From Minisyncoccota bacterium (lineage in GTDB: Bacteria > Patescibacteriota > Microgenomatia > PFEM01 > JAFGMK01): a DNA stretch of 64,000 nucleotides. Below, piece by piece: positions 24,372 through 62,808 of the stretch. How positions within the stretch are numbered: position 1 is the stretch's first letter; every line of letters starts with the position of its first letter. Under the pieces are notes generated by a model. That model searched no databases, was not told the origin of the DNA, and was given only the letters and a program-made list of their open reading frames with translations. Position numbers and translations under genes: made by a program. The DNA lies in the NCBI GenBank assembly GCA_016927565.1, contig JAFGMK010000006.1, forward strand, positions 37,942-101,941. The letters are read 5' to 3'.

Positions 24372-24881
24372 CTAAACCCAACAGACTTTATCCTGATCGT
24401 ATTCTGCCTCCGTATGCTGAGGCGGATCCTGGGCCGGATAACCAATCGGAAAAATTCCCAAAATCCTTTTTGACGGAGGAATCGCCAAAATCCGGCGGAC
24501 AAATTCCTCCCGATCGGCTCCGGTTTGAGTTTTTCCCTGATAGACATTAGCCCAACAAGTAGCTAATCCCTGATTGGCAGTTTCAAGATAAATATGAGCC
24601 CCGGCAATTGAGGCGTCCACCAGCCAATACTTGCTCTGTCCGGGGTCAGCCAAAATCACAATTGCAATCGGAGCGCCGCCGATAAATTTTTGCCAGGGGC
24701 CACACTGGGACAACTTTGACAATTTAACTCGGCTCTTAACCACCACAAACTCAACCGGATGGAGACTGTTAGCCGAAGGGGCAACCATGGCAGCAGCCAA
24801 AATTGACCTTATTTGCCGATCATTTACCGGCTCAGAAGTGTATTGCCTGATGCTTCTTCTTTTTTTAAAAAGTTCGTTCAT
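24372..24881 (-). CDS. nitroreductase family protein
   Basis: MNELFKKRRSIRQYTSEPV...AAAMVAPSANSLHPVEFVVV is a nitroreductase fold signature. Start moved to the ATG at 24881 (GAAAGG SD). The ORF track extends it to 24959. Confidence 0.7.
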   Translation of the reverse strand: MNELFKKRRSIRQYTSEPVNDRQIRSILAAAMVAPSANSLHPVEFVVVKSRVKLSKLSQCGPWQKFIGGAPIAIVILADPGQSKYWLVDASIAGAHIYLETANQGLATCWANVYQGKTQTGADREEFVRRILAIPPSKRILGIFPIGYPAQDPPQHTEAEYDQDKVCWV

Positions 24882-25196
24882 AAAATTACCTTTCTTTTCC
24901 ATCCTATCAAAAAAGCCAAAGAACAGCCAGTCCCCAAGTCCTTCCCGGACTTGGGGCAAAAAGGAAATTTTCTGGCTATCATTTTATTTCCCCGGCGGCT
25001 TATTTTTCTTTTTATGGGCTATGCAAGTAGTACACACTTCTTTTCACCTCCTTTAAACTATTTTTCAATTTTTAACTAACTAAAGATAACAAAGGAAGTC
25101 TTCGAATTCTGTAAGCCAGCTAACATTATTATCAATCATCTTGGCTGTCTGAACTGCTCTTATTATCAAGACGAGCCTTCTCCTTTAGATATCTTC

Positions 25197-25227
25197 TTGA
25201 CAAGTGAACATTCGTTCACTAAAATAG
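25197..25227 (+). promoter_or_regulatory. promoter (TTGACA ... TAAAAT) with an embedded Cheo-type LexA operator TGAACATTCGTTCA at 25205-25218
   Basis: A GAAC-N4-GTTC dyad of the Gram-positive SOS-box type sits between the -35 and -10 hexamers, directly upstream of the lexA-like gene. Confidence 0.55.
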
Positions 25228-25234
25228 TTCTTTA

Positions 25235-25798
25235 ATGGAAGACTCCCGTTTAAACAAGGTTCGCGATTTTTACAAAAATCACCACCGATTACCCTCTTAC
25301 TCGGAAATGCTAAGATTGTTTAAACTGGCTTCTAAGAATGCGATTTATAAAATTGTTAAAAAATGGCAGGAAACCGGCCTGGTAGAAAAAATCAACCATA
25401 AACTGGCTCCCACCAAAGATTTTTTCCGCCTGCCATTTTTTGGTTTGGTCAAGGCCGGCTTCCCCACCGGCGCTGACGAAGACCACCGCTTCTTAAGCCT
25501 GGAAGATTATTTAATCGATAAACCCCAAGCCTCTTTCTTACTAACGGTTGACGGCGATTCTCTCTCCGGCATCGGCATCTTACCGGGAGACTTGGCCATC
25601 ATCGAGAAAAGAACCGAAGCCCGGACAGAAGAGATTGTCTTAGCTTTAATCGACAATCATTGGAGCCTAAAAATTCTCCGGCGGCAAAACGGCCGGCTCC
25701 GGCTGGAATCAGCCAATGAAAAGTATCCCCCCCTCTACCCCAAAGAAGATTTACAGATCTTCGGAGTTTTAAAAGGAGTAATTAGAAAAATTAAATAA
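25235..25798 (+). CDS. lexA: LexA-like repressor (wHTH plus S24 peptidase)
   Basis: N-terminal wHTH. VKAG/FP carries the Ala-Gly cleavage site, GDSLSGIGI carries the Ser nucleophile, and LKILRR carries the Lys. Confidence 0.7.
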   Translation: MEDSRLNKVRDFYKNHHRLPSYSEMLRLFKLASKNAIYKIVKKWQETGLVEKINHKLAPTKDFFRLPFFGLVKAGFPTGADEDHRFLSLEDYLIDKPQASFLLTVDGDSLSGIGILPGDLAIIEKRTEARTEEIVLALIDNHWSLKILRRQNGRLRLESANEKYPPLYPKEDLQIFGVLKGVIRKIK

Positions 25799-25803
25799 AA
25801 TCC

Positions 25804-27036
25804 ATGTTTCAAATCCATCCCTGGCCCAACGCCATTCTTCATCTTGACGCTGACGCCTTCTTTGCCTCAGTGATGCAGGCCGTCAACCCGAATTTAAAAG
25901 GAAGAGCAGTGATTGTCGGCAGGGAAAGAGGCATCGCAACGGCAGTTTCTTATGAGGCTAGAGGATGGGGTGTTAAACGGGGAATGAGACTGAACGAGAT
26001 CAAAAGGACTTGCCCCCATTGCCTTTTGATAGACTCGGATTATGAACTTTATCAGCTTTTTTCCCAAAAAATATTCAAACTTTTAAGAGAATTTTCTCCT
26101 GCGATTGAAGAATATTCAATTGACGAAGGCTTTGCTGATCTTAAAGGCCTGAGACGGCCACTTCGGGCCAGTTACCGTCAAATCGGGCAAGAAATCAAAG
26201 AAAAAATCGAAAAATCACTGGGAATTACAGTTTCAGTCGGCATTTCTTTGACAAAATCGCTCGCTAAACTGGCTTCCTCTTTCCAAAAACCCTCCGGCCT
26301 GACCGTAGTTGACGGGTTAGGTCTGGAAAAATTCCTTTCTCAAATCCCTTTAAAAAAAGTTTGGGGAATCGGCGAACAAACCAGCGCCTACCTGGAGAAG
26401 CTGGGATTGATCAGCGCCCTGGATTTAGCCCTTAAACCGGAAAGTTTTATCAGCGCTTATTTGATTAAACCCCATCTTGAAATCTGGCATGAGCTTCGGG
26501 GAGAACAAGTTTACCTTTTAAACACCCACCCCAAAACAACCTATCAGAGTATCTTAAAAAGCGAGACTTTCCGGCCGGCCACTAATGAACCCCATCTGCT
26601 TTGGGCCAGATTGTTAAATAATATTGAAGCGGCCTTTACCAAGGCCCGGCACTATCAATACTCGGTTGGCCAGGTGTCTCTTTTTTTAAAGAGTCAGGAC
26701 TTTATTTATCATACCAGCCAAGTCCGGCTTCTGGAAAAAGCCGCTTATCCTTTTTTAATCAGAAAGGAATTAAAAAAAAGTTTTAACGGCCTTCTTTCCC
26801 GGCAAACTCTTTACCGGACTACCGGTTGTTGCTTATCAAATCTTCAAGATAACCGTCAGTCTCAATTGAGTTTTTTCCCCCCAAGTCAGGCCAAACTTAA
26901 TAAAGCAGTTAAATTTTATCCGCTATATGAAAACAAAAAAATTGATTTTGGCACTAGTCTTTTTGATCCTCAACTCGGAAAAAGAAGAAAAAAACAACCC
27001 CGGACCCGAATCCCTTTTTTATCTCTTCCCGCTTGA
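25804..27036 (+). CDS. Y-family DNA polymerase (DinB/UmuC-like)
   Basis: ILHLDADAFFASV is the Y-family catalytic motif. 410 aa. Starts 5 nt after the lexA stop, so the two form an operon. Confidence 0.8.
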   Translation: MFQIHPWPNAILHLDADAFFASVMQAVNPNLKGRAVIVGRERGIATAVSYEARGWGVKRGMRLNEIKRTCPHCLLIDSDYELYQLFSQKIFKLLREFSPAIEEYSIDEGFADLKGLRRPLRASYRQIGQEIKEKIEKSLGITVSVGISLTKSLAKLASSFQKPSGLTVVDGLGLEKFLSQIPLKKVWGIGEQTSAYLEKLGLISALDLALKPESFISAYLIKPHLEIWHELRGEQVYLLNTHPKTTYQSILKSETFRPATNEPHLLWARLLNNIEAAFTKARHYQYSVGQVSLFLKSQDFIYHTSQVRLLEKAAYPFLIRKELKKSFNGLLSRQTLYRTTGCCLSNLQDNRQSQLSFFPPSQAKLNKAVKFYPLYENKKIDFGTSLFDPQLGKRRKKQPRTRIPFLSLPA

Positions 27037-27081
27037 CTTTTCCAAACCTTATCCTCCTGATATGAAATAAACCTTGACAAA

Positions 27082-28095
27082 TTATTTCTGATTCAAAGCC
27101 CGACGGATAATTCCCACCAGACTGTTAAAGTGGCATTGGTCATAATCGCTTCGGTAAAAACCGCCTTTAAACATGGGGGCTAATTTTTGCAAACTGGAAA
27201 GAACTAAACCAATCTTTAGGGCCCGATCAAACAAATCATCCTGAATCCGTTTTGATTTTTTAACTTCTTTAATTAATTTTTTTCCCAGCTTGATATTTTC
27301 CCAAGCCCGGGTATAAAAACTAGCCACATCCAAGCCCCAATCAAGAAGGGGCAAACAAGACCAATAGGCGCTTTCCCAATCAAGCAAAACCGCTCTTTTG
27401 GTCCCAAAGAAGACATTATTGGGAGCCAGGTCGCCGTGAATTAAAACGCCCGGGGCTTGTTTGGCTTTGAAGAATGATTCTTTAAACTTTTTAAAAAAAA
27501 GAATGACAGTTTGGCCATCAGATTTCAGCCAATTCAAGTCGGAAACTTCTAGAGCCGGATAAAGAGTTTCAAGGTGCTCCCGAATCCGACTTTCGACTTC
27601 GTTGATAATGACTGATTTTTGCTTATTAATCAAAAGATAGGGTTTTAGCTTAATGGGAAGGTCTGACTGTTTAATTTGCCAAAGTTGACGAAGAGCATGG
27701 CCGAGAGCAATCATCTTTTTGGGTTTAAGCGAGGAGATGTTTTCTTCCCGACAAATTAGTCCCTGATTATCTCTAAAATACTGACCAACGTACCAAAAAA
27801 GGTTTTTTATTTGGCCGGAGTCAAAGATCCGCCGGGCCAGATTACTCTCCCGGGAAAGCCATTTTTGGATTAATAATTCTTTTTGGAACCTTCGCAATAG
27901 GCCGGGCTTATCACTAAAAGCGCCTTTGAAAAATAATTTTTTACCCTCGGAATTGATAAGTGGAAAATAAACAAAGCGGGGGGTCTCTTTAGTCAAACAC
28001 CGGCGAAGCTCAATTCGATCGGGCTGCCAGCTTCTTCTTTCAGTTAAAGAAAGAATCACTTTTAATCTTTGTTGATACTCGGTTTCAGATAACAT
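27082..28095 (-). CDS. phosphotransferase family protein (APH/choline-kinase-like kinase fold)
   Basis: The catalytic loop region VLIHGDLAPNNVFF...LLDWESAYW matches the HGDxxxxN...D motif of PF01636-like kinases. Confidence 0.55.
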   Translation of the reverse strand: MLSETEYQQRLKVILSLTERRSWQPDRIELRRCLTKETPRFVYFPLINSEGKKLFFKGAFSDKPGLLRRFQKELLIQKWLSRESNLARRIFDSGQIKNLFWYVGQYFRDNQGLICREENISSLKPKKMIALGHALRQLWQIKQSDLPIKLKPYLLINKQKSVIINEVESRIREHLETLYPALEVSDLNWLKSDGQTVILFFKKFKESFFKAKQAPGVLIHGDLAPNNVFFGTKRAVLLDWESAYWSCLPLLDWGLDVASFYTRAWENIKLGKKLIKEVKKSKRIQDDLFDRALKIGLVLSSLQKLAPMFKGGFYRSDYDQCHFNSLVGIIRRALNQK

Positions 28096-28114: not shown

Positions 28115-29122
28115 CTAAACTAAAGCGGCTCTTAACATCTTGATCAGGGTATTAAAATGCCGCCGGTCATAGTCTGTTTGACAGATCCCAAACTTAAACA
28201 TCGGGGCAATTTTTTGCAGAATGGAAAAGACCAAACCAATGGTCAGGCTTTTGGGGAAAAAAGGCTCTTTTGCCCAAGGCGATTTTTTTACTTCGGCGAT
28301 TAACTCTTTTCCCAACTCAGGCCGTAACCAGGCCCGGGTGGAAAAATTAGCCACATCAATGCCCAAAGCCAAAAGGAGATTATCGGTCCAACAAACCCAT
28401 TCCCAATCAAAAATAACCAGCTTATTTTCTTTAAAAAAAACATTGTTCGGCGCCAGGTCGCCATGGACTAAAACTCCCCGGCCATTCTGAAACTTGACGA
28501 TCTCTTTTTTTAGGCTTTTAAAAAAGCCTAAGATTGCTTTTTCATCTGCCTCGCTCCAATCCAGTTTAGTTTTACCAAAAGCTCCTCTTAGGGTTATCAG
28601 ATAACGCCGCGTCTTGGTGATTAATCTTTCAAAGGTCTTAATATTTTTCGGGGCTGATGATAACTCTTTAAAAAGATTCCGGGGGATTTGACTTTGTTTA
28701 ATTTGCCACAGTTTTTTTATCTCCACCCCCAGAGCGCGCATGTGTGCCAACGTCAAAAGGGAAATATCCTCATCCAAACAAACAATACCATTCTTACCCG
28801 AATAATAAGGACCAATATACCAAAAAACCCTGCCTTCTTGGGAAAAATCAGCTACAGGCCTAACCGGCCCGCCTTGCCTGGCTAACCAAACCTGAGCTGC
28901 CATTTCCTTCCTGAGGTTGTTACCAAGAGACTGGCCGCCAATCAAACAGCCTTTATAAAAAAATTCTTTTCCGGCAGAGTCGGTGAAAGGAAAGTAAAGA
29001 AAGCGGGGCTTTTCCTTTTTAAGAACTTTATTAACTTGAGAATAATTTATCTGCCAACCTTTTTTTTGAGCTAAGTCAATCAAAAAGTCGAGGTTTTTTT
29101 GCTGATTCTTTTGGGAAAGCAT
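28115..29122 (-). CDS. phosphotransferase family protein (APH-like), tandem paralogue of the 27082-28095 gene
   Basis: VLVHGDLAPNNVFF...IFDWEWVCW. Same length and overall collinearity as its neighbour. Confidence 0.55.
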   Translation of the reverse strand: MLSQKNQQKNLDFLIDLAQKKGWQINYSQVNKVLKKEKPRFLYFPFTDSAGKEFFYKGCLIGGQSLGNNLRKEMAAQVWLARQGGPVRPVADFSQEGRVFWYIGPYYSGKNGIVCLDEDISLLTLAHMRALGVEIKKLWQIKQSQIPRNLFKELSSAPKNIKTFERLITKTRRYLITLRGAFGKTKLDWSEADEKAILGFFKSLKKEIVKFQNGRGVLVHGDLAPNNVFFKENKLVIFDWEWVCWTDNLLLALGIDVANFSTRAWLRPELGKELIAEVKKSPWAKEPFFPKSLTIGLVFSILQKIAPMFKFGICQTDYDRRHFNTLIKMLRAALV

Positions 29123-32041: not shown

Positions 32042-34345
32042 TCAATAAAGGTCAGCAAACAAAACAGCGCCGCGGGGATAAAAACCCAAAGTGATCTGAG
32101 GCGGATAAAGCGGCTCTTTAAAATAATAGCCATCAGCCCAAGCCTGGGGATTGTCCAAAAGTAAAGGGAAAAAAATATCCTCCGCCTGACCGGAAAAGTC
32201 AAAAAGTTTTTGGGAAATAAAGTCGGCCATAAGGCTATGGGAAACCCACCCTAAGCCCAAATCCTGATATTGGGTTAGCTTGAGGCCAATGAGAGTTCCA
32301 TTTTCATCTTTGGCTAAACTTTTTTGATAGGCCTGAGGATAAGCTTGGCGCAGAAGAGAAACAACATTGTCTAAAGCGGGGTGCTTAAGACCGGTCAGGG
32401 CCGGGTAAAAAAGCCCGGTTATGATAGCAAAACCCTGCTCCTCAATTCCGGAAATTGTCTTGTTTTCAAAAGCTATTTTTTCCTTGAACTCGGAATCAAG
32501 CGAAAGCGGAATCAGGCCGTATTTTTCAAAAGCGGCCTCCAGAGACCGGCTAATCAGTTCTGCCTGTTCACTAGCAGTCTGATAAAAATCTTCCCGATTA
32601 AAGGTTTTGAAAATTTCAAGCGCCGAAGTATAGGCCGCCAGTTGTTTTATACCCAGATAACTGCTGTCAGGGCCCTGTTTCAGGGCAGCGTTTCCGTCAT
32701 TATCATAAGTGGTTATTCCGATTCCCTCATCGGCAATGCCGTTATTATTAGTGTCTCTTTTAGCCAGAGAAACAATCAGCTCATTTAAAAAAGGCAATAA
32801 TTCCTTAATAAAATCCTGATCCTGAGATTGGCGCCAATACCAGAAAGTCAAAAGGATAAAATTACTGTTCTCTTCCACAGGCATGCCCGAGGTTTCCCAG
32901 CCCGGAATGCCGTATGCTTGAGTGTTTTTAAGCCGGAAACGGGAACCCAGATCATGAGGAATCACCACTCCCCAATCATCTTTTTTGGCCGCTTGCTGCC
33001 AGGAGTTTAGCTCTGACTTTAAAACCCAGGGGAAAAATAACCCTTCCAGAACAGCATAGTCATGAGCCACATCCAAAGTATTCAAATACTTAAAATGGCC
33101 TTCCCAGACAAACCAGTCAAAATCCGGGCAATCAGCCTCTTCGCAAACCAACCAAGTGTTGCCCAGATATGAATGAAAGGCTTGGGCCAACAGCCATTTC
33201 CGGCGGGGAGAAATTATCTGCCGGCCGACTTTGTTTTCGAAATTGATTGTCTTCGCTAAAATTTCTTCCTCCTCAACAACAGCAAAGCGGATCACCTCAT
33301 CAAGGTCGCCGAACCAACGATGATAGGCAAAAGTAAAGAGACGATGGACCGGATCGTCTTGGGTCAGAACCTTCCCGTCTAAAAAACCGGCATAAACCAG
33401 TCTAAGAGTGTCCGTTTCTCCGGGTTCAAGCTCAATCAACCATTCGAAACCGCCGCGCTTATTGGCAATAAAGGGTTTTATCTGATCCTGGTTAGACAAA
33501 ACAACCAAAGCCCGCCGGCCCTCCTTTCTTACCCCGTCCCGAAAGTAAACAGCTTTCAAACCGCCAGACAAACCTGCCTCTGTTGCCTGACTGAAGGAAG
33601 TTTTAAGACCTGCTGACTGCTTCTGAGCGGTTTTATTAGTCAAAGAAATCTGCAAATAAAAAAAGGGGGCAACATTCATTTTATTAGCCTCGTCCTGAAA
33701 AGATTCGGTCGGAGAAAAGGGAGAGATAATCTTTAGGCTAACCAGAGCGTCTTGACTGACAAAATCCGTCTGCTGGTAAGTCAAGCCCAAATCAACTGAA
33801 GTCACTGCAAACCGGCTGTTAGGCAAAATCGGAAAGAGTCGGACAGTCTCTTTTTCGTTTCTCAAGCTGAGGTCAAAACCAGTCTCTTTATCTTCAAAAG
33901 TTCCCAAAATGCCTGAATTTATCTTATTTTCAGAAAACAACCAATCAAAATTAAAACGCGAGCCAAAACGAGAATTCATTATCGCCAGGCAATTAGGCCG
34001 GGCTTGAATCCTGCCGTCAGCTAAGAATAAATTTTCGGGGTTTACCCGTTGAGGACAGACTGACGAAGCAATATCAAGAGGGAAACTGGAAAGAGTCAAG
34101 CAGGAAGGAATTTGGGCTGATTTTTTATATCTTATAAAAACTATGCCAAAAAGAATTGCCAAACCGGAAAAAAGCAAACCTAAAATGACGGCTATTTTCT
34201 GGATTCTTTCTTGATTTTCCGGCCAAAATTTCATAAACGGTGCTTTTTTAAAAAAAAGACTAAAAGGCCTCACGAGCCCCTTAGTCTTTTTTAAATTACA
34301 AAAACTTTTTATCTTATCGGGTGATTGTAATCGTTGCCAGCTCAC
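32042..34345 (-). CDS. large membrane-anchored exported protein of unknown function
   Basis: 767 aa with an N-terminal TM (IAVILGLLFSGLAILFGIVFI). No firm family. The start may be the internal ATG at 34234, since the long form overlaps the pilin gene's 3' end by 32 nt. Confidence 0.45.
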   Translation of the reverse strand: MSWQRLQSPDKIKSFCNLKKTKGLVRPFSLFFKKAPFMKFWPENQERIQKIAVILGLLFSGLAILFGIVFIRYKKSAQIPSCLTLSSFPLDIASSVCPQRVNPENLFLADGRIQARPNCLAIMNSRFGSRFNFDWLFSENKINSGILGTFEDKETGFDLSLRNEKETVRLFPILPNSRFAVTSVDLGLTYQQTDFVSQDALVSLKIISPFSPTESFQDEANKMNVAPFFYLQISLTNKTAQKQSAGLKTSFSQATEAGLSGGLKAVYFRDGVRKEGRRALVVLSNQDQIKPFIANKRGGFEWLIELEPGETDTLRLVYAGFLDGKVLTQDDPVHRLFTFAYHRWFGDLDEVIRFAVVEEEEILAKTINFENKVGRQIISPRRKWLLAQAFHSYLGNTWLVCEEADCPDFDWFVWEGHFKYLNTLDVAHDYAVLEGLFFPWVLKSELNSWQQAAKKDDWGVVIPHDLGSRFRLKNTQAYGIPGWETSGMPVEENSNFILLTFWYWRQSQDQDFIKELLPFLNELIVSLAKRDTNNNGIADEGIGITTYDNDGNAALKQGPDSSYLGIKQLAAYTSALEIFKTFNREDFYQTASEQAELISRSLEAAFEKYGLIPLSLDSEFKEKIAFENKTISGIEEQGFAIITGLFYPALTGLKHPALDNVVSLLRQAYPQAYQKSLAKDENGTLIGLKLTQYQDLGLGWVSHSLMADFISQKLFDFSGQAEDIFFPLLLDNPQAWADGYYFKEPLYPPQITLGFYPRGAVLFADLY

Positions 34346-34736
34346 CAGTGGCGCTAGCTGTCAACCTCCCGTCAGCTTCCTCAAACAAAACATAACCGGT
34401 GGTAGCAGCGGTTCCGCTACTCGGATCCATAGGAATAGCCGGAATAAAGTCAGTCACCAGCTCGCCTTCCAAATTCAAGCCATCGGTACCGATATCTTGA
34501 GGAGCAGTCGTAATTCCGGTGGGAAAACTACCATCATTCGAAACAGCAAATTGGTGACAAGCATTCAAGACCTGATAAATATCATTTCGGCGCTGAGTGT
34601 CTCTGGCCTGGGCAAAATTCCGGGCCGGATTAACGGCAACCAGAACAATCGCCGCCAAAATACCGATAACGCCGATCACTACCAGAAGTTCGATTAGAGT
34701 GAAGCCCCTAATTTTTTTCACTTTGGGCAGTTTCAT
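34314..34736 (-). CDS. type IV pilin (prepilin-type N-terminal cleavage/methylation domain)
   Basis: MKLPKVKKIRG/FTLIELLVVIGVIGILAAIV is a class III signal peptide with GFTLIE. Confidence 0.8.
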   Translation of the reverse strand: MKLPKVKKIRGFTLIELLVVIGVIGILAAIVLVAVNPARNFAQARDTQRRNDIYQVLNACHQFAVSNDGSFPTGITTAPQDIGTDGLNLEGELVTDFIPAIPMDPSSGTAATTGYVLFEEADGRLTASATGELATITITR

Positions 34737-34871
34737 TTTTTCACCCCCCTTCTTTTTTGAGAAATTATTTTTTGATTCCGAATATGATCTCAGCTTAGCA
34801 GAGAAATAAGAAACTTGTCAATAAGCCTCTTTTCTCTGTGTTTACTCAGTTTCTTTAATAAATCGCGGCCA

Positions 34872-34910
34872 TTCGATCCCGGATCGAAATCTGCAGTCCA
34901 TCCGGAACCG
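34872..34910. repeat. dispersed palindromic repeat, copy 2 (reverse orientation, second arm degenerate)
   Basis: TTCGATCCCGGATCGAAATCTGCAGTCCATCCGGAACCG. Located in the 5' region of the pilin gene. Confidence 0.65.
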
Positions 34911-34963
34911 TTGTTCTCGTCAAAAAGTGTGAGCAGCTGCCTTTTCTCTTTATTCTTTTCAGC

Positions 34964-35173
34964 TTATTCACTCGAATAGCCCAAAGCCCGGGCCGCTCTT
35001 TTAACTGAATCAACATCCAAATAAGGCCGATTGGCTTCAACTAACACCGGATTGACTCTGAAAGCCTGAGACAAACGGTCATAGATATTTTTTCCGGAAA
35101 AGACAAAACCGCCCAAAAGAACCAGAATCAGCAGTAATTTTATTAAATTGGCAGCCTTGATTCCTTTCATCAA
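34964..35173 (-). CDS. small single-TM membrane protein in the pilus operon
   Basis: 69 aa with one TM helix. Its start overlaps the stop of the PilO-like gene. Confidence 0.35.
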   Translation of the reverse strand: MMKGIKAANLIKLLLILVLLGGFVFSGKNIYDRLSQAFRVNPVLVEANRPYLDVDSVKRAARALGYSSE

Positions 35174-35754
35174 CTTTCCCCCTGAAAAAAAGGAGTATTA
35201 ACAAAAATTCTGGCATGCAAAATCATTTCCGTCTCTTCCTGATCGGTTTTGGAAAAATCAATCAGGCTTAACTTCAATAAGTAGGGAAGTCCGGCCAAAT
35301 CAGTCAAAAACCTTCGGAGATTGGCAAAACCACCCTTCGCCTCAAGAGAAAAATCAATGTAGGAACGGCCCAACTCATCAAGAATCGGCTGATCAGTCGC
35401 AAACTGAAATACACTCAAGGAAACATCCCGGCTGATTCCCTTGAGCTCTTTAACAAAACGGACAATTCCGGCCTCGTCAGGTAATGAGTTTTCAATTATT
35501 TCAGTTTCTTCCGCAACCAGGCTAAAATTTTGAGAAATCACTTTCAGACTGGTTTCCTGTTCTTTAAGAGCAATCAGCTGACTCCGGCTTATTTCAGCTT
35601 GACTGCCGAAAGAAGACAACCGGCCAATCAGCCAGAAAGTTCCGCCTAAAAAAAGGGCGGAAAAGAATACTGCCAGCGAAAGATGAAGCCAGGGATAAAA
35701 TTGATGCTGTTTTTTGGAAACCGCTTTGATTTTTTTGTTTTTTTCCTTCTCCAT
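35170..35754 (-). CDS. PilO-like pilus assembly protein (N-terminal TM plus coiled coil)
   Basis: Bitopic architecture typical of PilO/PilN-family proteins. Sits in the pilMN-pilO position. Confidence 0.45.
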   Translation of the reverse strand: MEKEKNKKIKAVSKKQHQFYPWLHLSLAVFFSALFLGGTFWLIGRLSSFGSQAEISRSQLIALKEQETSLKVISQNFSLVAEETEIIENSLPDEAGIVRFVKELKGISRDVSLSVFQFATDQPILDELGRSYIDFSLEAKGGFANLRRFLTDLAGLPYLLKLSLIDFSKTDQEETEMILHARIFVNTPFFQGES

Positions 35755-35764
35755 TAGTAGAAAA

Positions 35765-37171
35765 TTATTTTATCGCCAAAAAAGAAATTGTAAAACTGAT
35801 GCTTTCTTCCTTTTCCAAACTTGAAAGCGGAATTCTCACCTGAGAAAGTTGACCCGTCTGTTCAAGCCTTTGTCTGAAATTGATCAACTGATCTTGATGA
35901 TCGGCAAAACCATTAATCAGGTATTCTCCTCTGGTAAAATCTATTGACCAATGCTGAAGATCAATTCCGGCGGGGGCGGCCGATTTAACCACTTCAATCA
36001 AAGGAAGCAATTCCTGCTGAGAAGCAGTCAATGCCAAAATCTGGCTAGCCTTGATATTGATCATTTTGGCCCGGACAGCAAGCTGATCCATTTGAGGAGT
36101 CAAAAGGGCCTGGACTTCAATCAATTCCCCTTTGATTTTCTGAAGTTCAAAATAAACTTTGGCAGTAGCAACGCCAAAACTAAAAAGGATTAAAAAAAGC
36201 CCGAAAAGCCAAAGCTTAACCCAGTTAGAAAGGATCCGGCTTTTTTCATTCCGGTCATAAACTCCTTGAATTCGGGGAGGGATCAGATTAATTGTTTTCT
36301 CATCAAGCGGAGCGGCAACGTCTTTCCTGGACAAAGAAACGGTAATGGCCAATTCTGCCGGCTTAATCGGAATCAAACCGGCTTTGATTTGAAACTTTTG
36401 CGAAACTTCGGCCGCCAAAGTTTCGCTCGATCCCTGACCGCAGAACAGAATACCGGCAATCCGGGTTTTCTTTTTGGCCTGAACTTGTTTTTTTTGATAA
36501 AAGGCTAACAAGTCCTGAATACTGGTTAAAAGCTTTCCCTGCTTGTCTTGAGAACCAAAATTAATGGTTGAACTAAGTTTTATCTCTCCTCGAGGGCCGA
36601 CGATTACTAAAGTAGCTTCACCTTCATCAACTTTAATCGCCAAACGATCATCTTTGCTCTTTCCCGTTAACCGCGCCAAACTCAAAGAAGTGGGTTCAAA
36701 AGCAACCGGTTCAAAACCCAAAAACTCCAATACTTGAGCATATCCCTCAACCAATTTGGCTGGCAAAGCCATAACTAAAACCTGGCTGGATTTCCTATCC
36801 TGCTCTAAAAGCATCCAATCGAGATAAACGGCCTCCAGCGATAAAGGCAACAAAGGTTCGGACTGCCAACGGACCGCGTCATCAAGCTCAGCCGGAGAAA
36901 GAGGCGGCAAACTAAGAACCCGGCTAAAAGCCGCCACTTCCGGTAAACCGACAACCACAAATTTACTTTTTAATTTTTTAATAAAAAGAAACTTCTTAAG
37001 ATATGTTAAAAGCTCTTTTGGTTTTTTTACCCATCCCCTGACAATTATTCCCGGTGCCAAAGCCAGGCTGGAAGCAATTACCGGCTGGCCTTTTTGATCA
37101 GCCTGAACCAAAAAAACCTTTTGGTCAGAAAAAGTCAGGGCAAAGTAGTTTTTTTTCCGTTTAAAAAGCAT
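35765..37171 (-). CDS. PilM-PilN fusion protein (actin-like ATPase domain plus a C-terminal TM/periplasmic PilN-like region)
   Basis: The N-terminal ~330 aa has the PilM/FtsA-like fold pattern. A TM helix (LWLFGLFLILFSFGV) follows, then a ~130-aa tail. Confidence 0.6.
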   Translation of the reverse strand: MLFKRKKNYFALTFSDQKVFLVQADQKGQPVIASSLALAPGIIVRGWVKKPKELLTYLKKFLFIKKLKSKFVVVGLPEVAAFSRVLSLPPLSPAELDDAVRWQSEPLLPLSLEAVYLDWMLLEQDRKSSQVLVMALPAKLVEGYAQVLEFLGFEPVAFEPTSLSLARLTGKSKDDRLAIKVDEGEATLVIVGPRGEIKLSSTINFGSQDKQGKLLTSIQDLLAFYQKKQVQAKKKTRIAGILFCGQGSSETLAAEVSQKFQIKAGLIPIKPAELAITVSLSRKDVAAPLDEKTINLIPPRIQGVYDRNEKSRILSNWVKLWLFGLFLILFSFGVATAKVYFELQKIKGELIEVQALLTPQMDQLAVRAKMINIKASQILALTASQQELLPLIEVVKSAAPAGIDLQHWSIDFTRGEYLINGFADHQDQLINFRQRLEQTGQLSQVRIPLSSLEKEESISFTISFLAIK

Positions 37172-37185
37172 GGGCAGAATCTATT

Positions 37186-37647
37186 TCATTCTATCTCCCG
37201 GACATGGTTGACTTCCATAATCCCGTCAACAAAATTTACCTCGGCTTGGATCTTTTTTACCTGAGACCCGTTATCGCAGTTGGCAACAATTATGTCCGGC
37301 GTTCCGGCGTTAACAGTTATTGTACACAAGCTTTCGCCAATCTGTAAACTCTCGCCATCATAAGCCGGATTTCTCAGGAGACGCAAAAGGCTGTTTTCAA
37401 GCGCCGATTCGGTTTCGTAAAAGATAATCAAACCCTCACAGGAATAACGGTCAATTAGATTTTGGCTAATTGCCAATTCTATTGCCGCCGTTCCCAATCC
37501 CAGAACAATCAGAATGACAATCAAAAGAGGAATTAAGGCCTGGCCGCGGATTTCACCTGATCTTCTTTCAGTTCGACAGCCTGATCTGCCGCCTCCCTCA
37601 AAGGAAGAGGATCGATCAGGGATACTGCTTAATTTGTAATTTAACAT
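37186..37647 (-). CDS. hypothetical membrane protein, possibly a divergent minor pilin
   Basis: One TM helix (ALIPLLIVILIVLGLG). No clear GFxxxE prepilin motif. Confidence 0.3.
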   Translation of the reverse strand: MLNYKLSSIPDRSSSFEGGGRSGCRTERRSGEIRGQALIPLLIVILIVLGLGTAAIELAISQNLIDRYSCEGLIIFYETESALENSLLRLLRNPAYDGESLQIGESLCTITVNAGTPDIIVANCDNGSQVKKIQAEVNFVDGIMEVNHVREIE

Positions 37648-37655
37648 CAGTGAAT

Positions 37656-38150
37656 TTATCTTAAACTAATGGTTGTTTCCCAGTTTTCTGATAATTTCCG
37701 TCCTCCCTGAAGCAAATAATTTGACTCTGCTGTAACTTTAATTTTTATTACTGCAGTTTGAGTTGCTTCAGTCGTATTAGTAAAAGAAAGATCAGTTACA
37801 GTAACTTCATTCGTGGTTAAATCCCAGGTTTGGCCGCTATCTGTTTTTTTTAAAAACCCATCCTGAAGCTGATAAACAATCACCCCGTCATTAAGACTGA
37901 GTGTCGCGGTTGAATTGCCGGCTGTCGGACTGGTAACCCCGGCTGCCCCTCTAATAGTCCGGGTCATATCACTGGCCATTTGGCGGAGATTTTTACTTAG
38001 CGTCACGAAAGCAGTCGAGTGGGCGTTAGCCAATTTAATACTGATAAAAATCTGAACCAACAAAACCAGAAAAAGAGAGAGAATACTGGAATAAATCAAG
38101 ATCTCAATCAGAGAATAACCCTTGGTTATTTTTAAACTTTTCTTTTTCAT
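37656..38150 (-). CDS. pseudopilin/minor pilin (prepilin-type N-terminal domain)
   Basis: MKKKSLKITKG/YSLIEILIYSSILSLFLVLL. Confidence 0.65.
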   Translation of the reverse strand: MKKKSLKITKGYSLIEILIYSSILSLFLVLLVQIFISIKLANAHSTAFVTLSKNLRQMASDMTRTIRGAAGVTSPTAGNSTATLSLNDGVIVYQLQDGFLKKTDSGQTWDLTTNEVTVTDLSFTNTTEATQTAVIKIKVTAESNYLLQGGRKLSENWETTISLR

Positions 38151-38187
38151 CTAAATTCGCTTGTCTATCCCGAGACAAAAGATCCCG

Positions 38188-39621
38188 CTAAGGCGAATAA
38201 TTGATCCCAATCTCATTTAAAACCGGCGTCTCTTCCCCATCAAACGAACGCAAATAGGCTTTAAAACGAATATATTGACCATAATTATTCCCCAACCAGA
38301 GCCCCTCGCCCTCCGGGATAGTATAAAGATCGTTCGTATCAGTAGTTCCGCCGGGTCCATAAAATAACCACGGCCCGACATCACTGTCCGCTACTGAAAC
38401 CTGAAAACCAATCTCTGTCTGAACGGAAACATCGCCCTGGTAAGTAATCCGGTTAAAGGCCGTCGGCCTGCCGGCATCAAAAACAGAAGAAGTATATGTC
38501 CCCTGGGTAAAATAGCCGCCAACGCCGCCGGTCAACTCAATCTGATCAACATATAAAATGACAGCCGGTTCACCGGCGCTCATCCATTTCGAAAAATATA
38601 TTGAACGAAGGCTGTCCCAATCACCCTGGGCCTGCTCATAATCAATATCTATCTCTGTCCATTCCTTCGCGGGAACAATCAATTCAACATTATCCCAATC
38701 ATTGTGAACCGCAGTAAAATTAAGCACTACCTCATCATCACCCGGATTATAGGCATAAAAATGAATATTTCTGAATCCTTTGGTGCAAACTGAGCTGTAA
38801 TTGTAAAATCTTACCCAAGACCAAAAAGAACCGGAACCGGGCGGTTCCAGAGTGATTTTCAAAGCATAAGGCGAATCATTCCAGGTATAATCAGTTGCCT
38901 TTTCCTGAACACTGCCGTTATTGAAAAACTGGATTAGCTGGCAAAGAAGCCATTGCAAAAACCGCAAGCCATTGCAATTTACCCGCCAGTTATTTTGCAA
39001 TTGGTCATCGTAAATCAAAGACTCAGGTGAACCGCCGAAACAACCCCCCTCTAACTCAATCTCGCCGTCAGCCCGGGGCGGATCGGTCACCTTGGTTAAA
39101 TCAAACTCCCCGGGTTCAAAATCGGCGATAGTACTCTGCTGCCACGAAAGATTATCCAGCCGAGTCAAATAAGCGGAAACTGAAAAACTGCGTTCTCTTA
39201 AAAGATGCCAGAAAATACTGGCGGTAATCTTTTTAGTTGAGGGATCAAATCTGGCTCCAGGCTCGCCTTCGGCTACCATTAAATCAGTCTCATTCCGGTA
39301 AACCGGGGAAATTTCAAGCAGCCGCCGGAATTCATCCTCGGTTTCACCCTCTTCGCTGGCAACTAATTCCCAACGGTCGCCGGCTAAATCAAGATAATAA
39401 GTGCCCGCTGCCAATTCTTCCCAGTTCCGCTCCCTGATAGACCGCGCCGCCTCTAAATATTCTTCAATCAAACTCTGAGCTTTTACCTCTTTTGAAGCAA
39501 GCCAGCTTGATTCAAGACTGGTAACAAAAAAATTCAAAATCGGCACTAGGAGCAAGCCCAAGATGCCGACAGCTAACAAAACTTCAACAAGGATAAGGCC
39601 TTGATTTTCTGAACTCTGCAT
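38188..39621 (-). CDS. large (477 aa) pilin-like protein, candidate tip or minor pilin
   Basis: MQSSENQG/LILVEVLLAVGILGLLLV is a prepilin-like N-terminus with the conserved Glu at +5. It is followed by a large W/Y/G-rich globular region. Confidence 0.55.
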   Translation of the reverse strand: MQSSENQGLILVEVLLAVGILGLLLVPILNFFVTSLESSWLASKEVKAQSLIEEYLEAARSIRERNWEELAAGTYYLDLAGDRWELVASEEGETEDEFRRLLEISPVYRNETDLMVAEGEPGARFDPSTKKITASIFWHLLRERSFSVSAYLTRLDNLSWQQSTIADFEPGEFDLTKVTDPPRADGEIELEGGCFGGSPESLIYDDQLQNNWRVNCNGLRFLQWLLCQLIQFFNNGSVQEKATDYTWNDSPYALKITLEPPGSGSFWSWVRFYNYSSVCTKGFRNIHFYAYNPGDDEVVLNFTAVHNDWDNVELIVPAKEWTEIDIDYEQAQGDWDSLRSIYFSKWMSAGEPAVILYVDQIELTGGVGGYFTQGTYTSSVFDAGRPTAFNRITYQGDVSVQTEIGFQVSVADSDVGPWLFYGPGGTTDTNDLYTIPEGEGLWLGNNYGQYIRFKAYLRSFDGEETPVLNEIGINYSP

Positions 39622-39622
39622 T

Positions 39623-40231
39623 TTAGATTTTTTCCACCGTCACCACTCCTAATTTATTAATGCTTATCTTTCTTTTCTGGTTTCCCCGCCGGTCAGTCAA
39701 AATAAAATAATTGTTCACCGGATCAAAGTTGCGGACCTGTCCGGTAATTTTTTCAAAAACACAATCATCTGAAGAAAGGCTGATATCATTTATCGCTAAT
39801 TCTGGGGCTAAATCAAATTTTTGATTGAGCGGATTATCGGGATTAAAGCCGATTCCTCCAAAAAGAGTGTAGCGGGCACTTTCAAAATGGACACCGAAAT
39901 TTAAAGCCGTCGGCTGGCCATAAGAATAACCGGCCAGAGTTTTGACCCTGGCCTGGAAAAGACAGGCAGTTATTTTCTTTGCCTCAGCTTCAATTCTGTC
40001 TTGCCGGGCAAAACCGCTCATCACCACCGTTCCCAAACCGAAAAGGACTGATAAAACACCAATAACAACAATTATCTCGATTAGAGTCAGACCGGCTTCC
40101 TTTTTATAATTGCTCACATTCTTTGATAAAGATAACGGTCTCGGATCGTCTGCAGATTTCGATCCGGGATCGAATAACAGCTCGGAATCGTTATTTTTTT
40201 CAAAGAGAACAGACAGTTTCTCTTTTTTCAT
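39623..40231 (-). CDS. type IV pilin; the real start is probably the internal GTG at 40117
   Basis: ...VSNYKKEAG/LTLIEIIVVIGVLSVLFGL. The ATG-initiated ORF gives an implausible 42-aa leader, and that leader contains the dispersed palindromic repeat. A GTG start would give the 9-aa leader MSNYKKEAG. Confidence 0.65.
   Translation of the reverse strand: MKKEKLSVLFEKNNDSELLFDPGSKSADDPRPLSLSKNVSNYKKEAGLTLIEIIVVIGVLSVLFGLGTVVMSGFARQDRIEAEAKKITACLFQARVKTLAGYSYGQPTALNFGVHFESARYTLFGGIGFNPDNPLNQKFDLAPELAINDISLSSDDCVFEKITGQVRNFDPVNNYFILTDRRGNQKRKISINKLGVVTVEKI
40134..40172. repeat. dispersed palindromic repeat, copy 3
   Basis: GGTCTCGGATCGTCTGCAGATTTCGATCCGGGATCG, with GATAAAGATAACG on the left and GCTCGGAATCG..CAAAGAGAA on the right. 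Lies just upstream of the likely pilin start. Confidence 0.75.
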
Positions 40232-40374
40232 CTATAAAAAATGTCAAAAGTCAATTGTTAAATTATCTCTTGATTTAATTAATTTTAAAAAGCGGCAATT
40301 TTCTTTTCTTGAGAAAATTGTAAATTGACTCTGATTATCCCGGAAACGGGCTACATGTTTTTCATCGCATCATT

Positions 40375-41607
40375 TCAATTTGACGATAGGCTTTTGGATA
40401 AACTTCCGACAAAAGAATAAATCGGAGCAATCACCGAAATCACCATCACCCCAACGCCAATCCCGATTAACAACATCATGATCGGCTCAATTACGCTGGT
40501 TAAGGTCTTTAAGGCGTCGCTCACTTCTTCTTCATAAAACCGCGCCAGATCAAGTAAAAGTTTGTCTAAAGCCCCGGTTTTCTCCCCGGTTGAAACCATC
40601 CGCACCATAATTGAGGGAAAAGTTTTTGTTTTTTTTAAAACCTGAGAAAGAGCGATTCCTTTTTCTACTTCCTCGGCAAAAACATTGCCAATGTTTTTAT
40701 ACTGGGGTAAATTGAGAGTGCTGGAAGCTACCCTCAAGGCATCAATAATCGGCACTCCGCTTTTTAAAAGAGTCGAGAGAGTCCGGTTAAATCTTCCCAG
40801 TGCCAGCTTAATCAAAAGCTGGCCGAAAAATGGAATCCGGGCCAGCAAGTTACCTAAAAGCTTCTTCCCCGCCGGTCTGGTCAGGCCCGAAACCAAACCA
40901 GCGATCAAAATGAAAAGACCACCGAAAAACAAAAGCAGATTCTGAGAAATAAAAAGACCGCTTCTTAAAATAAAAAGCGTATAAGCCGGCAGGGGAAATT
41001 CACGGTGAAGATTTAAAAGAATCGGGGCAATCTTCGGCACGACAAAGACTAACATTGCCACCCCCAAGCCTCCGCTGGTTAAAACAATAACCGTCGGATA
41101 AGCCAAGGTGCTTTTAACTTTGCTGTTGAGTTCATAATCAGAATAAAGTTGATTTCCCAGATACTCGAAGGTCTTGCCCAAAGTGCCGCTTTTTTCCCCG
41201 GCTTTAACCAAAGTTAAAAAAATTTCATCAAAAACTGCCGAATGTTTGGCAAAAGCCTCAGACAAGGGTTGACCGTTTTGCAAAGCCGCCTGAAGATCAT
41301 CCAGGACTTTTCTCATGGTCGGATTTTTAGTTTCCGCAGAAATTGCCTCCACCGCTTCAGTAAGAGCCAAACCGGCATTGATCATTGTCGCCAAATAGCG
41401 GCAAAGATCAGCCTTATCAATCAGGCTGATTTTTTTCCGGGTCAGAAAGGATTGCTTCTCAGTCTCTCCACCGACTTCTTTGACAAAAAGGGGCGAAAGC
41501 TGGTCAGCCTTTAATTGAGCTCCGGCTTCTTTTTTACTTGCCGCTACCAGAACCCCTTCTTTGATTTTGCCTTTTTCTTCTTTAGCTTTATATTTAAAAA
41601 CAGCCAT
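40375..41607 (-). CDS. pilC: type IV pilus/T2SS platform protein PilC/GspF
   Basis: 410 aa with a duplicated GspF domain and three TM segments. Confidence 0.85.
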   Translation of the reverse strand: MAVFKYKAKEEKGKIKEGVLVAASKKEAGAQLKADQLSPLFVKEVGGETEKQSFLTRKKISLIDKADLCRYLATMINAGLALTEAVEAISAETKNPTMRKVLDDLQAALQNGQPLSEAFAKHSAVFDEIFLTLVKAGEKSGTLGKTFEYLGNQLYSDYELNSKVKSTLAYPTVIVLTSGGLGVAMLVFVVPKIAPILLNLHREFPLPAYTLFILRSGLFISQNLLLFFGGLFILIAGLVSGLTRPAGKKLLGNLLARIPFFGQLLIKLALGRFNRTLSTLLKSGVPIIDALRVASSTLNLPQYKNIGNVFAEEVEKGIALSQVLKKTKTFPSIMVRMVSTGEKTGALDKLLLDLARFYEEEVSDALKTLTSVIEPIMMLLIGIGVGVMVISVIAPIYSFVGSLSKSLSSN

Positions 41608-41629
41608 GCTTTAAACTTAAAATCCGAAA

Positions 41630-43321: not shown

Positions 43322-43753
43322 TTAAGACGGAAAATAACTCTTAACGAAAGCCACCACCTGGCTGGGAGTGTAATTCGATTTAATCAGAAAATGTTGAACC
43401 CCCAATTCTTTGGCCTTTTTAATATCCTGATCTTGAGATAAGTTAGAAAGAATGATCACCGGAATTTTATTCAACCGCTCGTTAGTTCTTACCTTTTCTA
43501 AAACATCCATCCCGCCAATCTTAGGGATCATCAGGTCTAAAACCACAAGGTCGATTTTCTTTTCGGCTAGTTTGACCAATCCCTCTTCGCCGTCATAAGC
43601 GGTTTCCACATTGAAACCTTCGGTTTTAAATTTGGTTGAATACATCTTAACCATCGGCAAATCATCCTCAACCAAAAGAATGGTTTTTGCCGAAACAGAC
43701 GAAACTGCCGGATCAGCTGTTTGGGAAATTTTCTCTTGCTGGTTTTGGCCCAT
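43322..43753 (-). CDS. stand-alone response-regulator receiver (CheY-like) protein
   Basis: ILLVEDDLPMV...DLVVLDLMIPKIGGMDVL has the D/D/K receiver residues. There is no output domain. Confidence 0.8.
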   Translation of the reverse strand: MGQNQQEKISQTADPAVSSVSAKTILLVEDDLPMVKMYSTKFKTEGFNVETAYDGEEGLVKLAEKKIDLVVLDLMIPKIGGMDVLEKVRTNERLNKIPVIILSNLSQDQDIKKAKELGVQHFLIKSNYTPSQVVAFVKSYFPS

Positions 43754-43762
43754 ATCTTTATT

Positions 43763-44725: not shown

Positions 44726-44764
44726 ACTTTGAGAATATCATTTTAACCTTTCCCTTTCAATCCC

Positions 44765-45580: not shown

Positions 45581-45633
45581 AGACTCGGCACAAAAGAGCC
45601 TATACTTGTAATTAATTAGTTTCTTTATTTCTA

Positions 45634-47079: not shown

Positions 47080-47444
47080 AAAAAATATTATTGGTTGAGG
47101 ACGAACAATTCTTAAGTGACTTATATGCTGAAGTTTTAAAAGCGGAAGGCTTTTCAGTTGAAACGGCTCACGACGGCCAAAAAGGCTATGAGACCATGAA
47201 AAAAAGCAGCTTTGACCTGGTTCTCCTGGATATCATGCTGCCAAAAATGGACGGAATTGATATTTTGAACCGCCTGAAAAAGGAAAAAAAGCTAAAGCTC
47301 AATAAACACATTATTTTACTGACCAACCTTTCCGGAGAAGCGGTCTTAAGAAAAAAGGGGCATATCGAAGTTGACGAATATCTTATCAAAAGCTCTCTTA
47401 CGCCTGATATTTTAGTAGAAAAAGTGAAAGAATATCTGAAGTAG
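47076..47444 (+). CDS. stand-alone receiver-domain protein
   Basis: KILLVEDEQFL...DLVLLDIMLPKMDG. 122 aa with no output domain. Confidence 0.8.
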   Translation: MKKILLVEDEQFLSDLYAEVLKAEGFSVETAHDGQKGYETMKKSSFDLVLLDIMLPKMDGIDILNRLKKEKKLKLNKHIILLTNLSGEAVLRKKGHIEVDEYLIKSSLTPDILVEKVKEYLK

Positions 47445-47461
47445 CCGTTAAGCGTCGGCTG

Positions 47462-62795: not shown

Positions 62796-62808
62796 CCTGA
62801 TTTATCCT

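Follow-up and report, generated by a model that had tools for sequence, protein, structure and literature searches.

The LexA box of Gram-positive bacteria is the Cheo box, and its extended consensus in Bacillus subtilis is CGAAC...GTTCG. Among the Patescibacteria, the SOS network is said to be small and centred on translesion synthesis, with ribonucleotide reductase reportedly one of its targets. That network was published by Sánchez-Osuna, Barbé and Erill in 2017 (Environ Microbiol 19:3465, PMID 28618189). In Clostridium, the LexA box reads GAAC-N4-GTTT/C, and recA, uvrB and ruvC are Cheo-box genes (PMC4234289). Where LexA is missing, other regulators replace it, as in the HdiR-UmuC system of the Streptococcaceae and the UmuDAb-umuDC system of Acinetobacter, where UmuDAb, a variant of UmuD, carries an added DNA-binding domain at its N-terminus (PMC8565304).

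We analyzed a 64-kb window, the whole stretch of DNA under study, in which a gene for a LexA-family repressor is followed by a gene for a Y-family DNA polymerase (Table 1). The cassette is very probably the lexA of a Pacebacteria/Microgenomates lineage (CPR, Patescibacteria), joined in a self-repressed operon of two genes to a DinB-like translesion polymerase; we infer operator binding, repressor cleavage and induction by DNA damage from the sequence. Earlier literature and NCBI annotation already cover this type of system, the protein family and its presence in Patescibacteria; a protein of 100% identity is listed at NCBI as 'LexA family transcriptional regulator [Candidatus Pacebacteria bacterium]'.

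Table 1. Positions of the promoter, operator, genes and predicted functional residues of the cassette in the window
Feature	Position	Strand	Evidence or remark
lexA promoter, -35 hexamer TTGACA	25197..25202	+	11/12 promoter match, 17-nt spacer
Predicted LexA operator, perfect 16-bp palindrome GTGAAC-ATTC-GTTCAC, GTGAACATTCGTTCAC	25204..25219	.	PWM 24.5 bits
-10 hexamer TAAAAT	25220..25225	+	9 nt from ATG
lexA-family repressor gene, 187 aa	25235..25798	+	Pfam Peptidase_S24 (PF00717), E 3.5e-21
Ala74-Gly75 codons, predicted self-cleavage bond	25454..25459	+	K73-A74-G75 invariant, 35 homologs
Ser109 codon, predicted nucleophile (GDS motif)	25559..25561	+	D108-S109 invariant, 35 homologs
Lys146 codon, predicted general base	25670..25672	+	L145-K146-I147 invariant, 35 homologs
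Gene for DinB-like translesion (Y-family) DNA polymerase, 410 aa	25804..27036	+	Pfam IMS 3.4e-44, IMS_HHH, IMS_C
QLSFF (aa 354-358), probable beta-clamp-binding motif	26863..26877	+	Aligned with QLSFL of Pol IV 7yll

The lexA promoter, TTGACA-17-TAAAAT, spans positions 25197-25225, is near-consensus and is the best promoter-like site between 24700 and 27400. A preliminary description of this DNA had placed a GAAC-N4-GTTC dyad between the two hexamers, and the dyad is present exactly there: a 14-nt dyad, TGAACATTCGTTCA at 25205-25218, contains the Cheo core as GAACATTCGTTC (25206-25217) and lies inside a full 16-bp dyad, which occupies positions 2-17 of the promoter's spacer. The same description had called the site a Cheo-type LexA box. 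This naming holds for the core and fails for the flanks, which follow the variant GTGAAC-N4-GTTYAC, with T-G/C-A, and not CGAAC...GTTCG. When the window was scanned with a position weight matrix (PWM), the operator was the sole site of at least 8 bits. Because the -10 hexamer is so close to the start codon, at a distance of only 9 nt, the lexA mRNA would be leaderless or nearly so, and there would be no room for a Shine-Dalgarno sequence. The corresponding distance is 6-12 nt in 32 of 70 orthologous promoters.

The repressor combines a winged helix-turn-helix at its N-terminus (residues ~4-59), a linker with the predicted cleavage site and a C-terminal S24 domain. Its Ala-Gly site, serine and lysine, all noted in the preliminary description, proved to be invariant across 35 homologs (A74-G75, S109 and K146). 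In a profile of these homologs, Ala74-Gly75 aligns with the A-G of the Escherichia coli LexA motif VAAGEP, Ser109 with the serine of its GMSM motif and Lys146 with the lysine of its TVKRL motif. The same profile aligns residues 6-186 with the T. maritima LexA 3k2z (E 6e-23), and also aligns the repressor with E. coli LexA, its residue 6 pairing with LexA residues 11 onward (3k2z, 1jhh). In the AF2 model, the N-terminal domain is built of helices at residues 4-16, 22-28 and 34-47 and a beta hairpin at 50-59 (pLDDT ~90), and the top Foldseek matches of the model are full-length LexA proteins, with both domains aligned. The Pfam model LexA_DNA_bind (PF01726) gave no match to the repressor at E <= 0.01, and the NCBIfam LexA equivalog TIGR00498 scored 84.4 bits, below its cut-off of 110.95. 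On these alignments and this model, the repressor is a divergent member of the LexA family, and the palindromic operator in its own promoter points to LexA autoregulation. The preliminary description had also named what would speak against it, a dyad unique to this site jointly with a non-functional S24 catalytic dyad; the second half is false, as the catalytic residues appear intact.

The DinB/UmuC-like polymerase gene reported to follow 5 nt downstream does start at that distance from the end of lexA and has no Shine-Dalgarno sequence, and the two genes are presumably co-transcribed and translationally coupled. The Pfam families PF00817, PF11798 and PF11799 all match the polymerase above their gathering cut-offs. 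Against NCBIfam models it scores 136-199 bits for Pol IV and 141 bits for UmuC, in each case below the model's own cut-off, and the closest solved structure is the Pol IV structure 7yll (E 1e-45). Residues D15, D17 and D107-E108 align with the catalytic residues of Pol IV. On these comparisons, the enzyme appears catalytically intact and is probably DinB-like. Its residues 354-358 read QLSFF, a probable clamp motif by similarity to the pattern QL[SD]LF; three relatives examined (L046, L051 and L076) have QDSLF or QTSLF at this position.

We compared the lexA promoter with those of 81 orthologous loci from Microgenomates-type CPR genomes. The motif RAAC-N4-GTTY is present upstream of the lexA ortholog in 80 of the 81 loci and in 2.4% of 4021 control segments, each 300 nt long and taken from the same loci; the operator is therefore not a product of chance. 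The conserved consensus is GTRAAC-N4-GTTYAC (80/81 promoters), and its flanking GT/AC bases (positions 1-2 and 15-16), which were left free in the motif search and not preset, are kept in ~95% of 104 sites. Most of the 81 loci retain the TTGACA hexamer; a strong promoter is present in 70, and in 67 of these its spacer holds the operator. This retained promoter and operator design supports the self-regulated mutagenic repair (TLS) module that had been proposed from the window. About 21 loci carry a second operator site directly after the -10 hexamer. Two sets of PWM matches were rejected as coding coincidences: strong matches in L046, L051, L060 and L076 (GTAAACAATCGTTCAT) fall within a mutY-like ORF and encode the conserved peptide DERLFT, and in some lexA genes matches at +3 code for the N-terminal residues MNDRL.

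The breadth of the regulon was estimated on ~1.9 Mb of genome fragments. A PWM scan of lexA flanks totalling 1.26 Mb gave convincing additional sites only ahead of TLS and SRAP genes. Two relatives (L032 and L036) have a separate promoter of the same operator design, which drives a small ORF and a second DinB-like polymerase; this second cassette has dual operators of its own, and in L036 these also lie across the promoter of an SRAP gene that points the other way. The small ORF has no Pfam or NCBIfam family (weak DUF6504 match, E 0.18). As in the core SOS regulon, the predicted box thus stands over error-prone polymerase genes.

A classical, broad SOS master regulator would carry the same box over recA, uvrAB, ruvAB and other genes elsewhere in the genome, as in Bacillus and Clostridium, and the cassette would be one target of many. 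The full-length LexA homology of the protein speaks for this reading, as does the Gram-positive GAAC-N4-GTTC/T core of the box, which controls recA, uvrB and ruvC in Clostridia (PMC4234289). Moreover, 35 of 80 loci have no Y-family polymerase within the flank (some flanks are incomplete), and in most of these lexA is followed by a convergent gene; the repressor must therefore have targets elsewhere in those genomes. However, the wider regulon that the preliminary description expected at recA, recX and uvr genes was not seen. The recX gene of the window has no operator site of at least 8 bits, the 21-kb recA-recX and nrdR-RNR loci of two lexA-carrying genomes, JARYMT01 (L030/L161) and JAJYOJ01 (L006/L162), have none of at least 6 bits, and no site was found upstream of recA in any of 80 related metagenomic recA loci, which are not matched to this lexA and by themselves carry little weight. 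Together with the restriction of convincing extra sites to TLS and SRAP genes, these results make a broad regulon quite unlikely. A search for recA in the window found none. Two relatives with this lexA encode RecA in their genomes. Among the lexA flanks there is one recA gene, in L030, which is incomplete at the end of the locus.

The regulon in this lineage appears to be small, comprising lexA, TLS polymerase cassettes and, in one relative, an SRAP gene, and on the sites predicted here recA, recX and ribonucleotide reductase appear to lie outside it. The missing box at recA in the two matched genomes is a departure from the usual core SOS regulon.

Alternatively, the upstream gene might encode a UmuD-like or UmuDAb-like protein, mainly a cleavable subunit that assists the neighbouring polymerase in a Pol V-like pair and serves as its dedicated regulator, and not a LexA. 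With the S24 gene ahead of the Y-family polymerase gene, the order mimics umuDC, and the regulon is apparently restricted to polymerases, an arrangement that resembles UmuDAb of Acinetobacter and HdiR of Streptococcaceae (PMC8565304). In addition, the NCBIfam UmuD subfamily model gives 86.7 bits over the C-terminal domain, on a par with the LexA model. Against this stand the LexA-type winged helix at the N-terminus and the full-length LexA alignment, a polymerase that is nearer to Pol IV/DinB than to UmuC models (199 vs 141 bits), and the loci themselves: of 80, 38 have a close ortholog of the polymerase gene following lexA in the same orientation, and 42 have none. No need for a UmuD' partner is known for DinB-type enzymes. 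We consider a UmuD-like role in place of a LexA one improbable.

S24 repressors and Y-family polymerases are also common on phages and integrative conjugative elements (ICEs), and the flanking genes vary among the relatives' loci examined, as might be expected of a CI-type repressor that belongs to a prophage or mobile element and carries a polymerase as cargo. However, Pfam finds no phage or integrase genes beside the cassette, which is flanked by genes for a nitroreductase, APH-like kinases and an ABC transporter; at the N-terminus, the domain belongs to the LexA type and not to CI/XRE; and the best 80 of 246 genome matches all fall within one CPR lineage. We rejected an identity as phage repressor, as the matches in a phage collection were all below 31% identity, and the annotated ones among the matches listed were bacterial lexA. 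A mobile-element origin in place of a chromosomal SOS regulator is thus very improbable.

Least credible, and already refuted by conservation, is a chance palindrome with no regulatory role, which could draw on the two bare GAAC-N4-GTTC matches in the window (0.65 expected; 16 of 100 shuffles reach two), a count that by itself is unremarkable and not significant, and which is contradicted by the motif's presence in all but one of the orthologous promoters, its fixed position inside the spacer and flanking bases that are conserved though unconstrained by the search. The second of these matches (34905-34916) precedes a type IV pilin-like gene; its flanks do not fit and its score is under 8 bits, and it was set aside as a chance occurrence.

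Returning to a self-repressed lexA-polymerase operon, we propose the following switch. A LexA dimer bound to the 16-bp palindrome GTGAAC-N4-GTTCAC would exclude RNA polymerase, because the palindrome fills almost the whole spacer between the -35 and -10 hexamers. Upon DNA damage, RecA-ssDNA filaments would stimulate LexA self-cleavage at Ala74-Gly75 by Ser109 and Lys146, as the conserved residues suggest. Once the repressor had left, lexA and polY would be transcribed as one mRNA with no leader or almost none, the polymerase, whose catalytic carboxylates and clamp motif appear intact, would bypass lesions, and fresh LexA would reset the switch. It is tempting to go further and to regard the LexA of Microgenomates-type CPR as a minimal damage-tolerance switch, one that has given up recA and excision repair, controls only itself and translesion cassettes (plus SRAP), and works through leaderless mRNAs and consensus promoters plugged at the spacer, with the cleaved C-terminal fragment perhaps serving as a UmuD'-like partner of the polymerase; as a whole, we hold this extended proposal to be speculative and rather doubtful.

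The cassette shows an organism with a reduced genome retaining a module for mutagenic bypass that would be inducible and governed by LexA in the classic manner. The sharp 16-bp operator model, GTGAAC-N4-GTTYAC, can be used to annotate Microgenomates genomes, and the apparently missing box at recA, together with the leaderless design, offers modest refinements for specialists in SOS evolution.

Among described systems, the Patescibacteria SOS network of 2017 belongs to the same superphylum, has the same kind of LexA and was likewise defined by comparative genomics. Ribonucleotide reductase is reportedly a target there, whereas the two nrdR-RNR loci here have no site. With the Gram-positive LexA/Cheo box (B. 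subtilis GAAC-N4-GTTC), the cassette shares the core dyad, lexA autoregulation as predicted here, a winged helix-turn-helix joined to an S24 domain, the Ala-Gly bond and the Ser/Lys pair. It differs in its flanks, which are C...G in B. subtilis and G-T...A-C here, in the placement of the operator inside the promoter spacer, and in the recA genes of the two matched genomes, which lack the box that recA has in Clostridium. Like HdiR-UmuC and UmuDAb-umuDC, the cassette would place a cleavable S24 repressor over itself and an error-prone polymerase, in a minimal SOS-like network; in contrast to those systems, its repressor aligns with LexA over the full length, and the polymerase paired with it stands nearer to DinB than to UmuC. 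The E. coli umuDC operon (Pol V) has in common with it the order of S24 protein and Y-family polymerase and, as predicted for the cassette, control by LexA and a cleavable Ala/Cys-Gly bond with RecA-stimulated cleavage. However, UmuD lacks a DNA-binding domain and does not act as a repressor, whereas the upstream gene here encodes a predicted repressor with a winged helix-turn-helix of 60 residues at its N-terminus, and the polymerase that follows it is DinB-like.

Upstream of the lexA-family gene lies the strongest sigma-70-like site in positions 24700–27400, matching 11 of 12 positions, and its spacer is occupied by a palindrome. The LexA-type dyad that the preliminary description placed between TTGACA and TAAAAT (TGAACATTCGTTCA, 25205–25218) is present and forms the inner 14 bp of this 16-bp palindrome. 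By itself, the bare GAAC-N4-GTTC core is unremarkable within the window, where it occurs twice compared with 0.65 expected occurrences, and 16 of 100 shuffles reach two. Near matches to GTRAAC-N4-GTTYAC (two or fewer mismatches) number one in the window versus 4.9 ± 1.85 expected from shuffles; this statistically weak deficit may reflect the avoidance of spurious LexA sites. Farther upstream, within the long intergenic region from a nitroreductase gene to the lexA promoter, there is a GC-rich hairpin with a 10-bp stem (CCCCAAGTCC-ttcc-GGACTTGGGG, 24930–24957), which a terminator scan did not call.

Coordinates of the lexA–polymerase cassette, its promoter elements and the recX–rny genes
Feature	Position	Strand	Remarks
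−35 hexamer TTGACA	25197–25202	+	17 nt from −10
Perfect 16-bp palindrome GTGAACATTCGTTCAC	25204–25219		fills nearly the whole promoter spacer
−10 hexamer TAAAAT	25220–25225	+	ATG 9 nt downstream
lexA-family ORF, 187 codons	25235–25798	+	Pfam Peptidase_S24, E 3.5e-21
Y-family polymerase ORF, 410 codons	25804–27036	+	Pfam IMS, IMS_HHH, IMS_C; starts 5 nt past lexA stop codon
RNase Y gene (rny)	60641–62200	−	
recX	62313–62795	−	

We scanned one genome per species, identified 246 relatives, took the best 80 of the 246 as orthologous loci, and inspected their upstream regions. In the 300 nt upstream of the gene, 80 of the 81 orthologous loci carry the motif RAAC-N4-GTTY; in the sole exception (L045), a perfect site lies at −337. 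Among 4021 control segments taken from these loci, only 2.4% contain a match. The two flanking bases on each side, which the motif search did not impose, are G in 99, T in 102, A in 103 and C in 94 of 104 sites, and the operator consensus is GTRAAC-(R-A-W-T)-GTTYAC. Promoters with at least 10 of 12 positions matched were found at 70 of the 81 loci; in 67 of these 70, the operator starts 6–10 nt past the start of the −35 hexamer, and therefore takes up the spacer and extends to the −10 hexamer. Around 21 loci have a second operator directly 3′ of the −10. Conservation rules out a chance palindrome, and the comparative sequence evidence is decisive for a real operator. The recurring operator-in-spacer promoter also supports the earlier reading of a self-regulated module.

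At 32 of the 70 loci, the start codon follows the −10 hexamer by only 6–12 nt (by 9 nt in the window), a spacing that implies lexA mRNAs with no leader or almost none; in this CPR lineage, these mRNAs appear to be leaderless. Between the window's −10 hexamer and lexA start codon (25220–25237), there is no Shine-Dalgarno sequence.

The repressor is a divergent but genuine LexA family member, as judged from its sequence and predicted fold. Three residue groups, K73-A74-G75, D108-S109 and L145-K146-I147, show no variation among 35 aligned homologs. The resulting profile matches solved LexA structures end to end, both Thermotoga maritima 3k2z (query residues 6–186, E 6e-23) and Escherichia coli LexA, aligning A74-G75 with the cleavage bond, S109 with the catalytic serine and K146 with the lysine, which bears out the Ala-Gly site, nucleophile and lysine described earlier. 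The proposed winged helix is likewise borne out by the AlphaFold model (mean pLDDT 75.6, N-terminal domain ~90), whose predicted N-terminal domain has the three helices and beta hairpin of LexA; Pfam LexA_DNA_bind gave no match at E ≤ 0.01. Against the PDB, the ten best Foldseek matches are all LexA chains of full length, aligned across both domains. UmuD and lambda cI match the alignment profile only in the C-terminal domain. NCBIfam scores are 84 bits for the LexA equivalog (cut-off 111) and 87 bits for the UmuD model. An identical (100%) protein, encoded on a 150-kb contig, is recorded as 'LexA family transcriptional regulator [Candidatus Pacebacteria bacterium]', Pacebacteria being part of Minisyncoccota (alias Patescibacteria, CPR). 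Among more than 200 homologs, the organism-named ones come from Roizman-, Shapiro-, Beckwith-, Pacebacteria or 'Patescibacteria group' MAGs, and the best 80 of 246 relatives all fall within a Microgenomates-type lineage, many relatives bearing placeholder labels such as 'uncultured Gammaproteobacteria'. A phage repressor is disfavored by the gene context and the lack of close phage relatives.

The neighboring gene encodes, as first described, a Y-family polymerase. It contains the catalytic D15, D17 and D107-E108, its closest solved relative is Pol IV 7yll (E 1e-45), and its QLSFF (residues 354–358) aligns with QLSFL of that structure. Pol IV models score up to 199 bits, exceeding the UmuC model at 141 bits, all below curated cut-offs. 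A close ortholog lies 3′ of lexA on the same strand at 38 of 80 loci, separated by 1 to ~790 nt, and 7 further loci have a distant Y-family gene (24–33% identical) nearby. At the remaining 35, no Y-family polymerase was detected within the flank covered, which is truncated at some loci, and most of these have a convergent gene 3′ of lexA. The alternative of a dedicated UmuD/UmuDAb-like subunit and regulator is disfavored by the full-length LexA architecture, by the DinB-like nature of the partner, and by the 42 of 80 loci without a close polymerase ortholog 3′ of lexA. Two tandem paralogous APH/kinase-like genes (27082–28095 and 28115–29122, minus strand) run convergently to the polymerase gene and are probably unrelated to the cassette because no operator is nearby.

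In sequence, then, a conserved palindrome plugs a strong promoter, the LexA-type cleavage apparatus is intact, and a catalytically intact translesion polymerase gene is co-oriented with lexA and closely abuts it. By analogy with established LexA behavior, a LexA dimer would bind the dyad and occlude the promoter, RecA*-stimulated self-cleavage at A74-G75 would lead to derepression and lesion bypass, and newly made LexA would reset the switch.

The operator had also been offered as a handle on the rest of the regulon, with recA, recX and uvr promoters named as places to look; it does not appear to lead to a large set of genes. A symmetrized PWM built from the 104 sites finds the lexA operator alone (24.5 bits) in the 64-kb window, with no other site reaching 8 bits. 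The window's recX has no LexA site, and recA was not found in the window, whose remaining annotated genes are not repair-related (SecDF, type IV pilus, two-component systems, ABC transporters, NUDIX hydrolases and others). We tested recA in two genomes shown to carry this lexA, JARYMT01 and JAJYOJ01, where 21-kb recA-recX loci also hold nrdR-RNR and, in one genome, a PolX gene adjoins lexA; their loci have no site of at least 6 bits beyond the lexA promoter itself. Sites upstream of recA are also lacking from 80 metagenomic recA loci, of which 14 are 70–84% identical to a Microgenomates RecA. These recA and recX data disfavor a broad SOS regulon.

Apart from dual operators at two relatives' loci (L032:4480–6077 and L036:10658–12324), 1.26 Mb of lexA flanks yielded no convincing extra sites. 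At both loci, a second promoter of the same design, with an operator in the spacer and another just past the −10, drives a small ORF (~85–100 aa) and then a DinB-like polymerase ~27% identical to the window's. The small ORF has the motif INEKISV..YNRE.G.VMPRKIRW, matches no Pfam or NCBIfam family, and may encode an uncharacterized polymerase accessory protein. A divergent SRAP (SOS-response-associated peptidase) gene (L036:12286–13013; PF02586, E 2e-60) looks LexA-controlled and leaderless, because the same dual operators overlap its predicted −35 and its −10 lies 6 nt from the ATG. Because the window, lexA flanks and recA loci yield no further sites, the regulon appears to be restricted to lexA and damage-tolerance genes, as judged from fragments rather than whole genomes. 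A conserved operator-like 16-mer, GTAAACAATCGTTCAT, occurs within the 3′-terminal part of a mutY-like gene (L046:11186, L051:12496, L060:11551, L076:10396), upstream of nth by 70–90 nt in L046, L051 and L076 and by ~260 nt in L060. Because this 16-mer codes for the conserved peptide DERLFT, its resemblance to the operator is probably coincidental, a part in nth regulation being conceivable.

The window's recX and RNase Y genes are adjacent as in relatives, whose order is recA-recX-rny; here, a divergent alpha/beta-hydrolase gene (62850–63608) precedes recX, and recA is absent from that place. The 54-nt spacer between recX and the hydrolase gene (62796–62849) contains a perfect 20-bp palindrome, TTTATCATCGCGATGATAAA (62817–62836), which bears no relation to the LexA box and may serve a different regulator as its operator. 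Elsewhere, a type IV pilus cluster (34314–43318: PilB-like ATPase, PilC, PilM/N, PilO and several N-methyl pilins) adjoins a region (43322–48270) that encodes two histidine kinases, four stand-alone response-regulator receiver proteins and an IS200-like Y1 transposase (44828–45505).

This type of system is already known from HdiR/UmuDAb circuits, the Cheo box and the Patescibacteria SOS network, and the locus adds another instance. The last was the subject of work by Sánchez-Osuna, Barbé and Erill in 2017 (PMID 28618189). At its core, the dyad matches the Gram-positive Cheo box, GAAC-N4-GTTC in Bacillus subtilis and GAAC-N4-GTTT/C in Clostridium (PMC4234289), whereas the flanks differ. The cassette resembles the minimal SOS-like circuits of HdiR and UmuDAb, where the S24 repressor governs both its own expression and that of an error-prone polymerase (PMC8565304).
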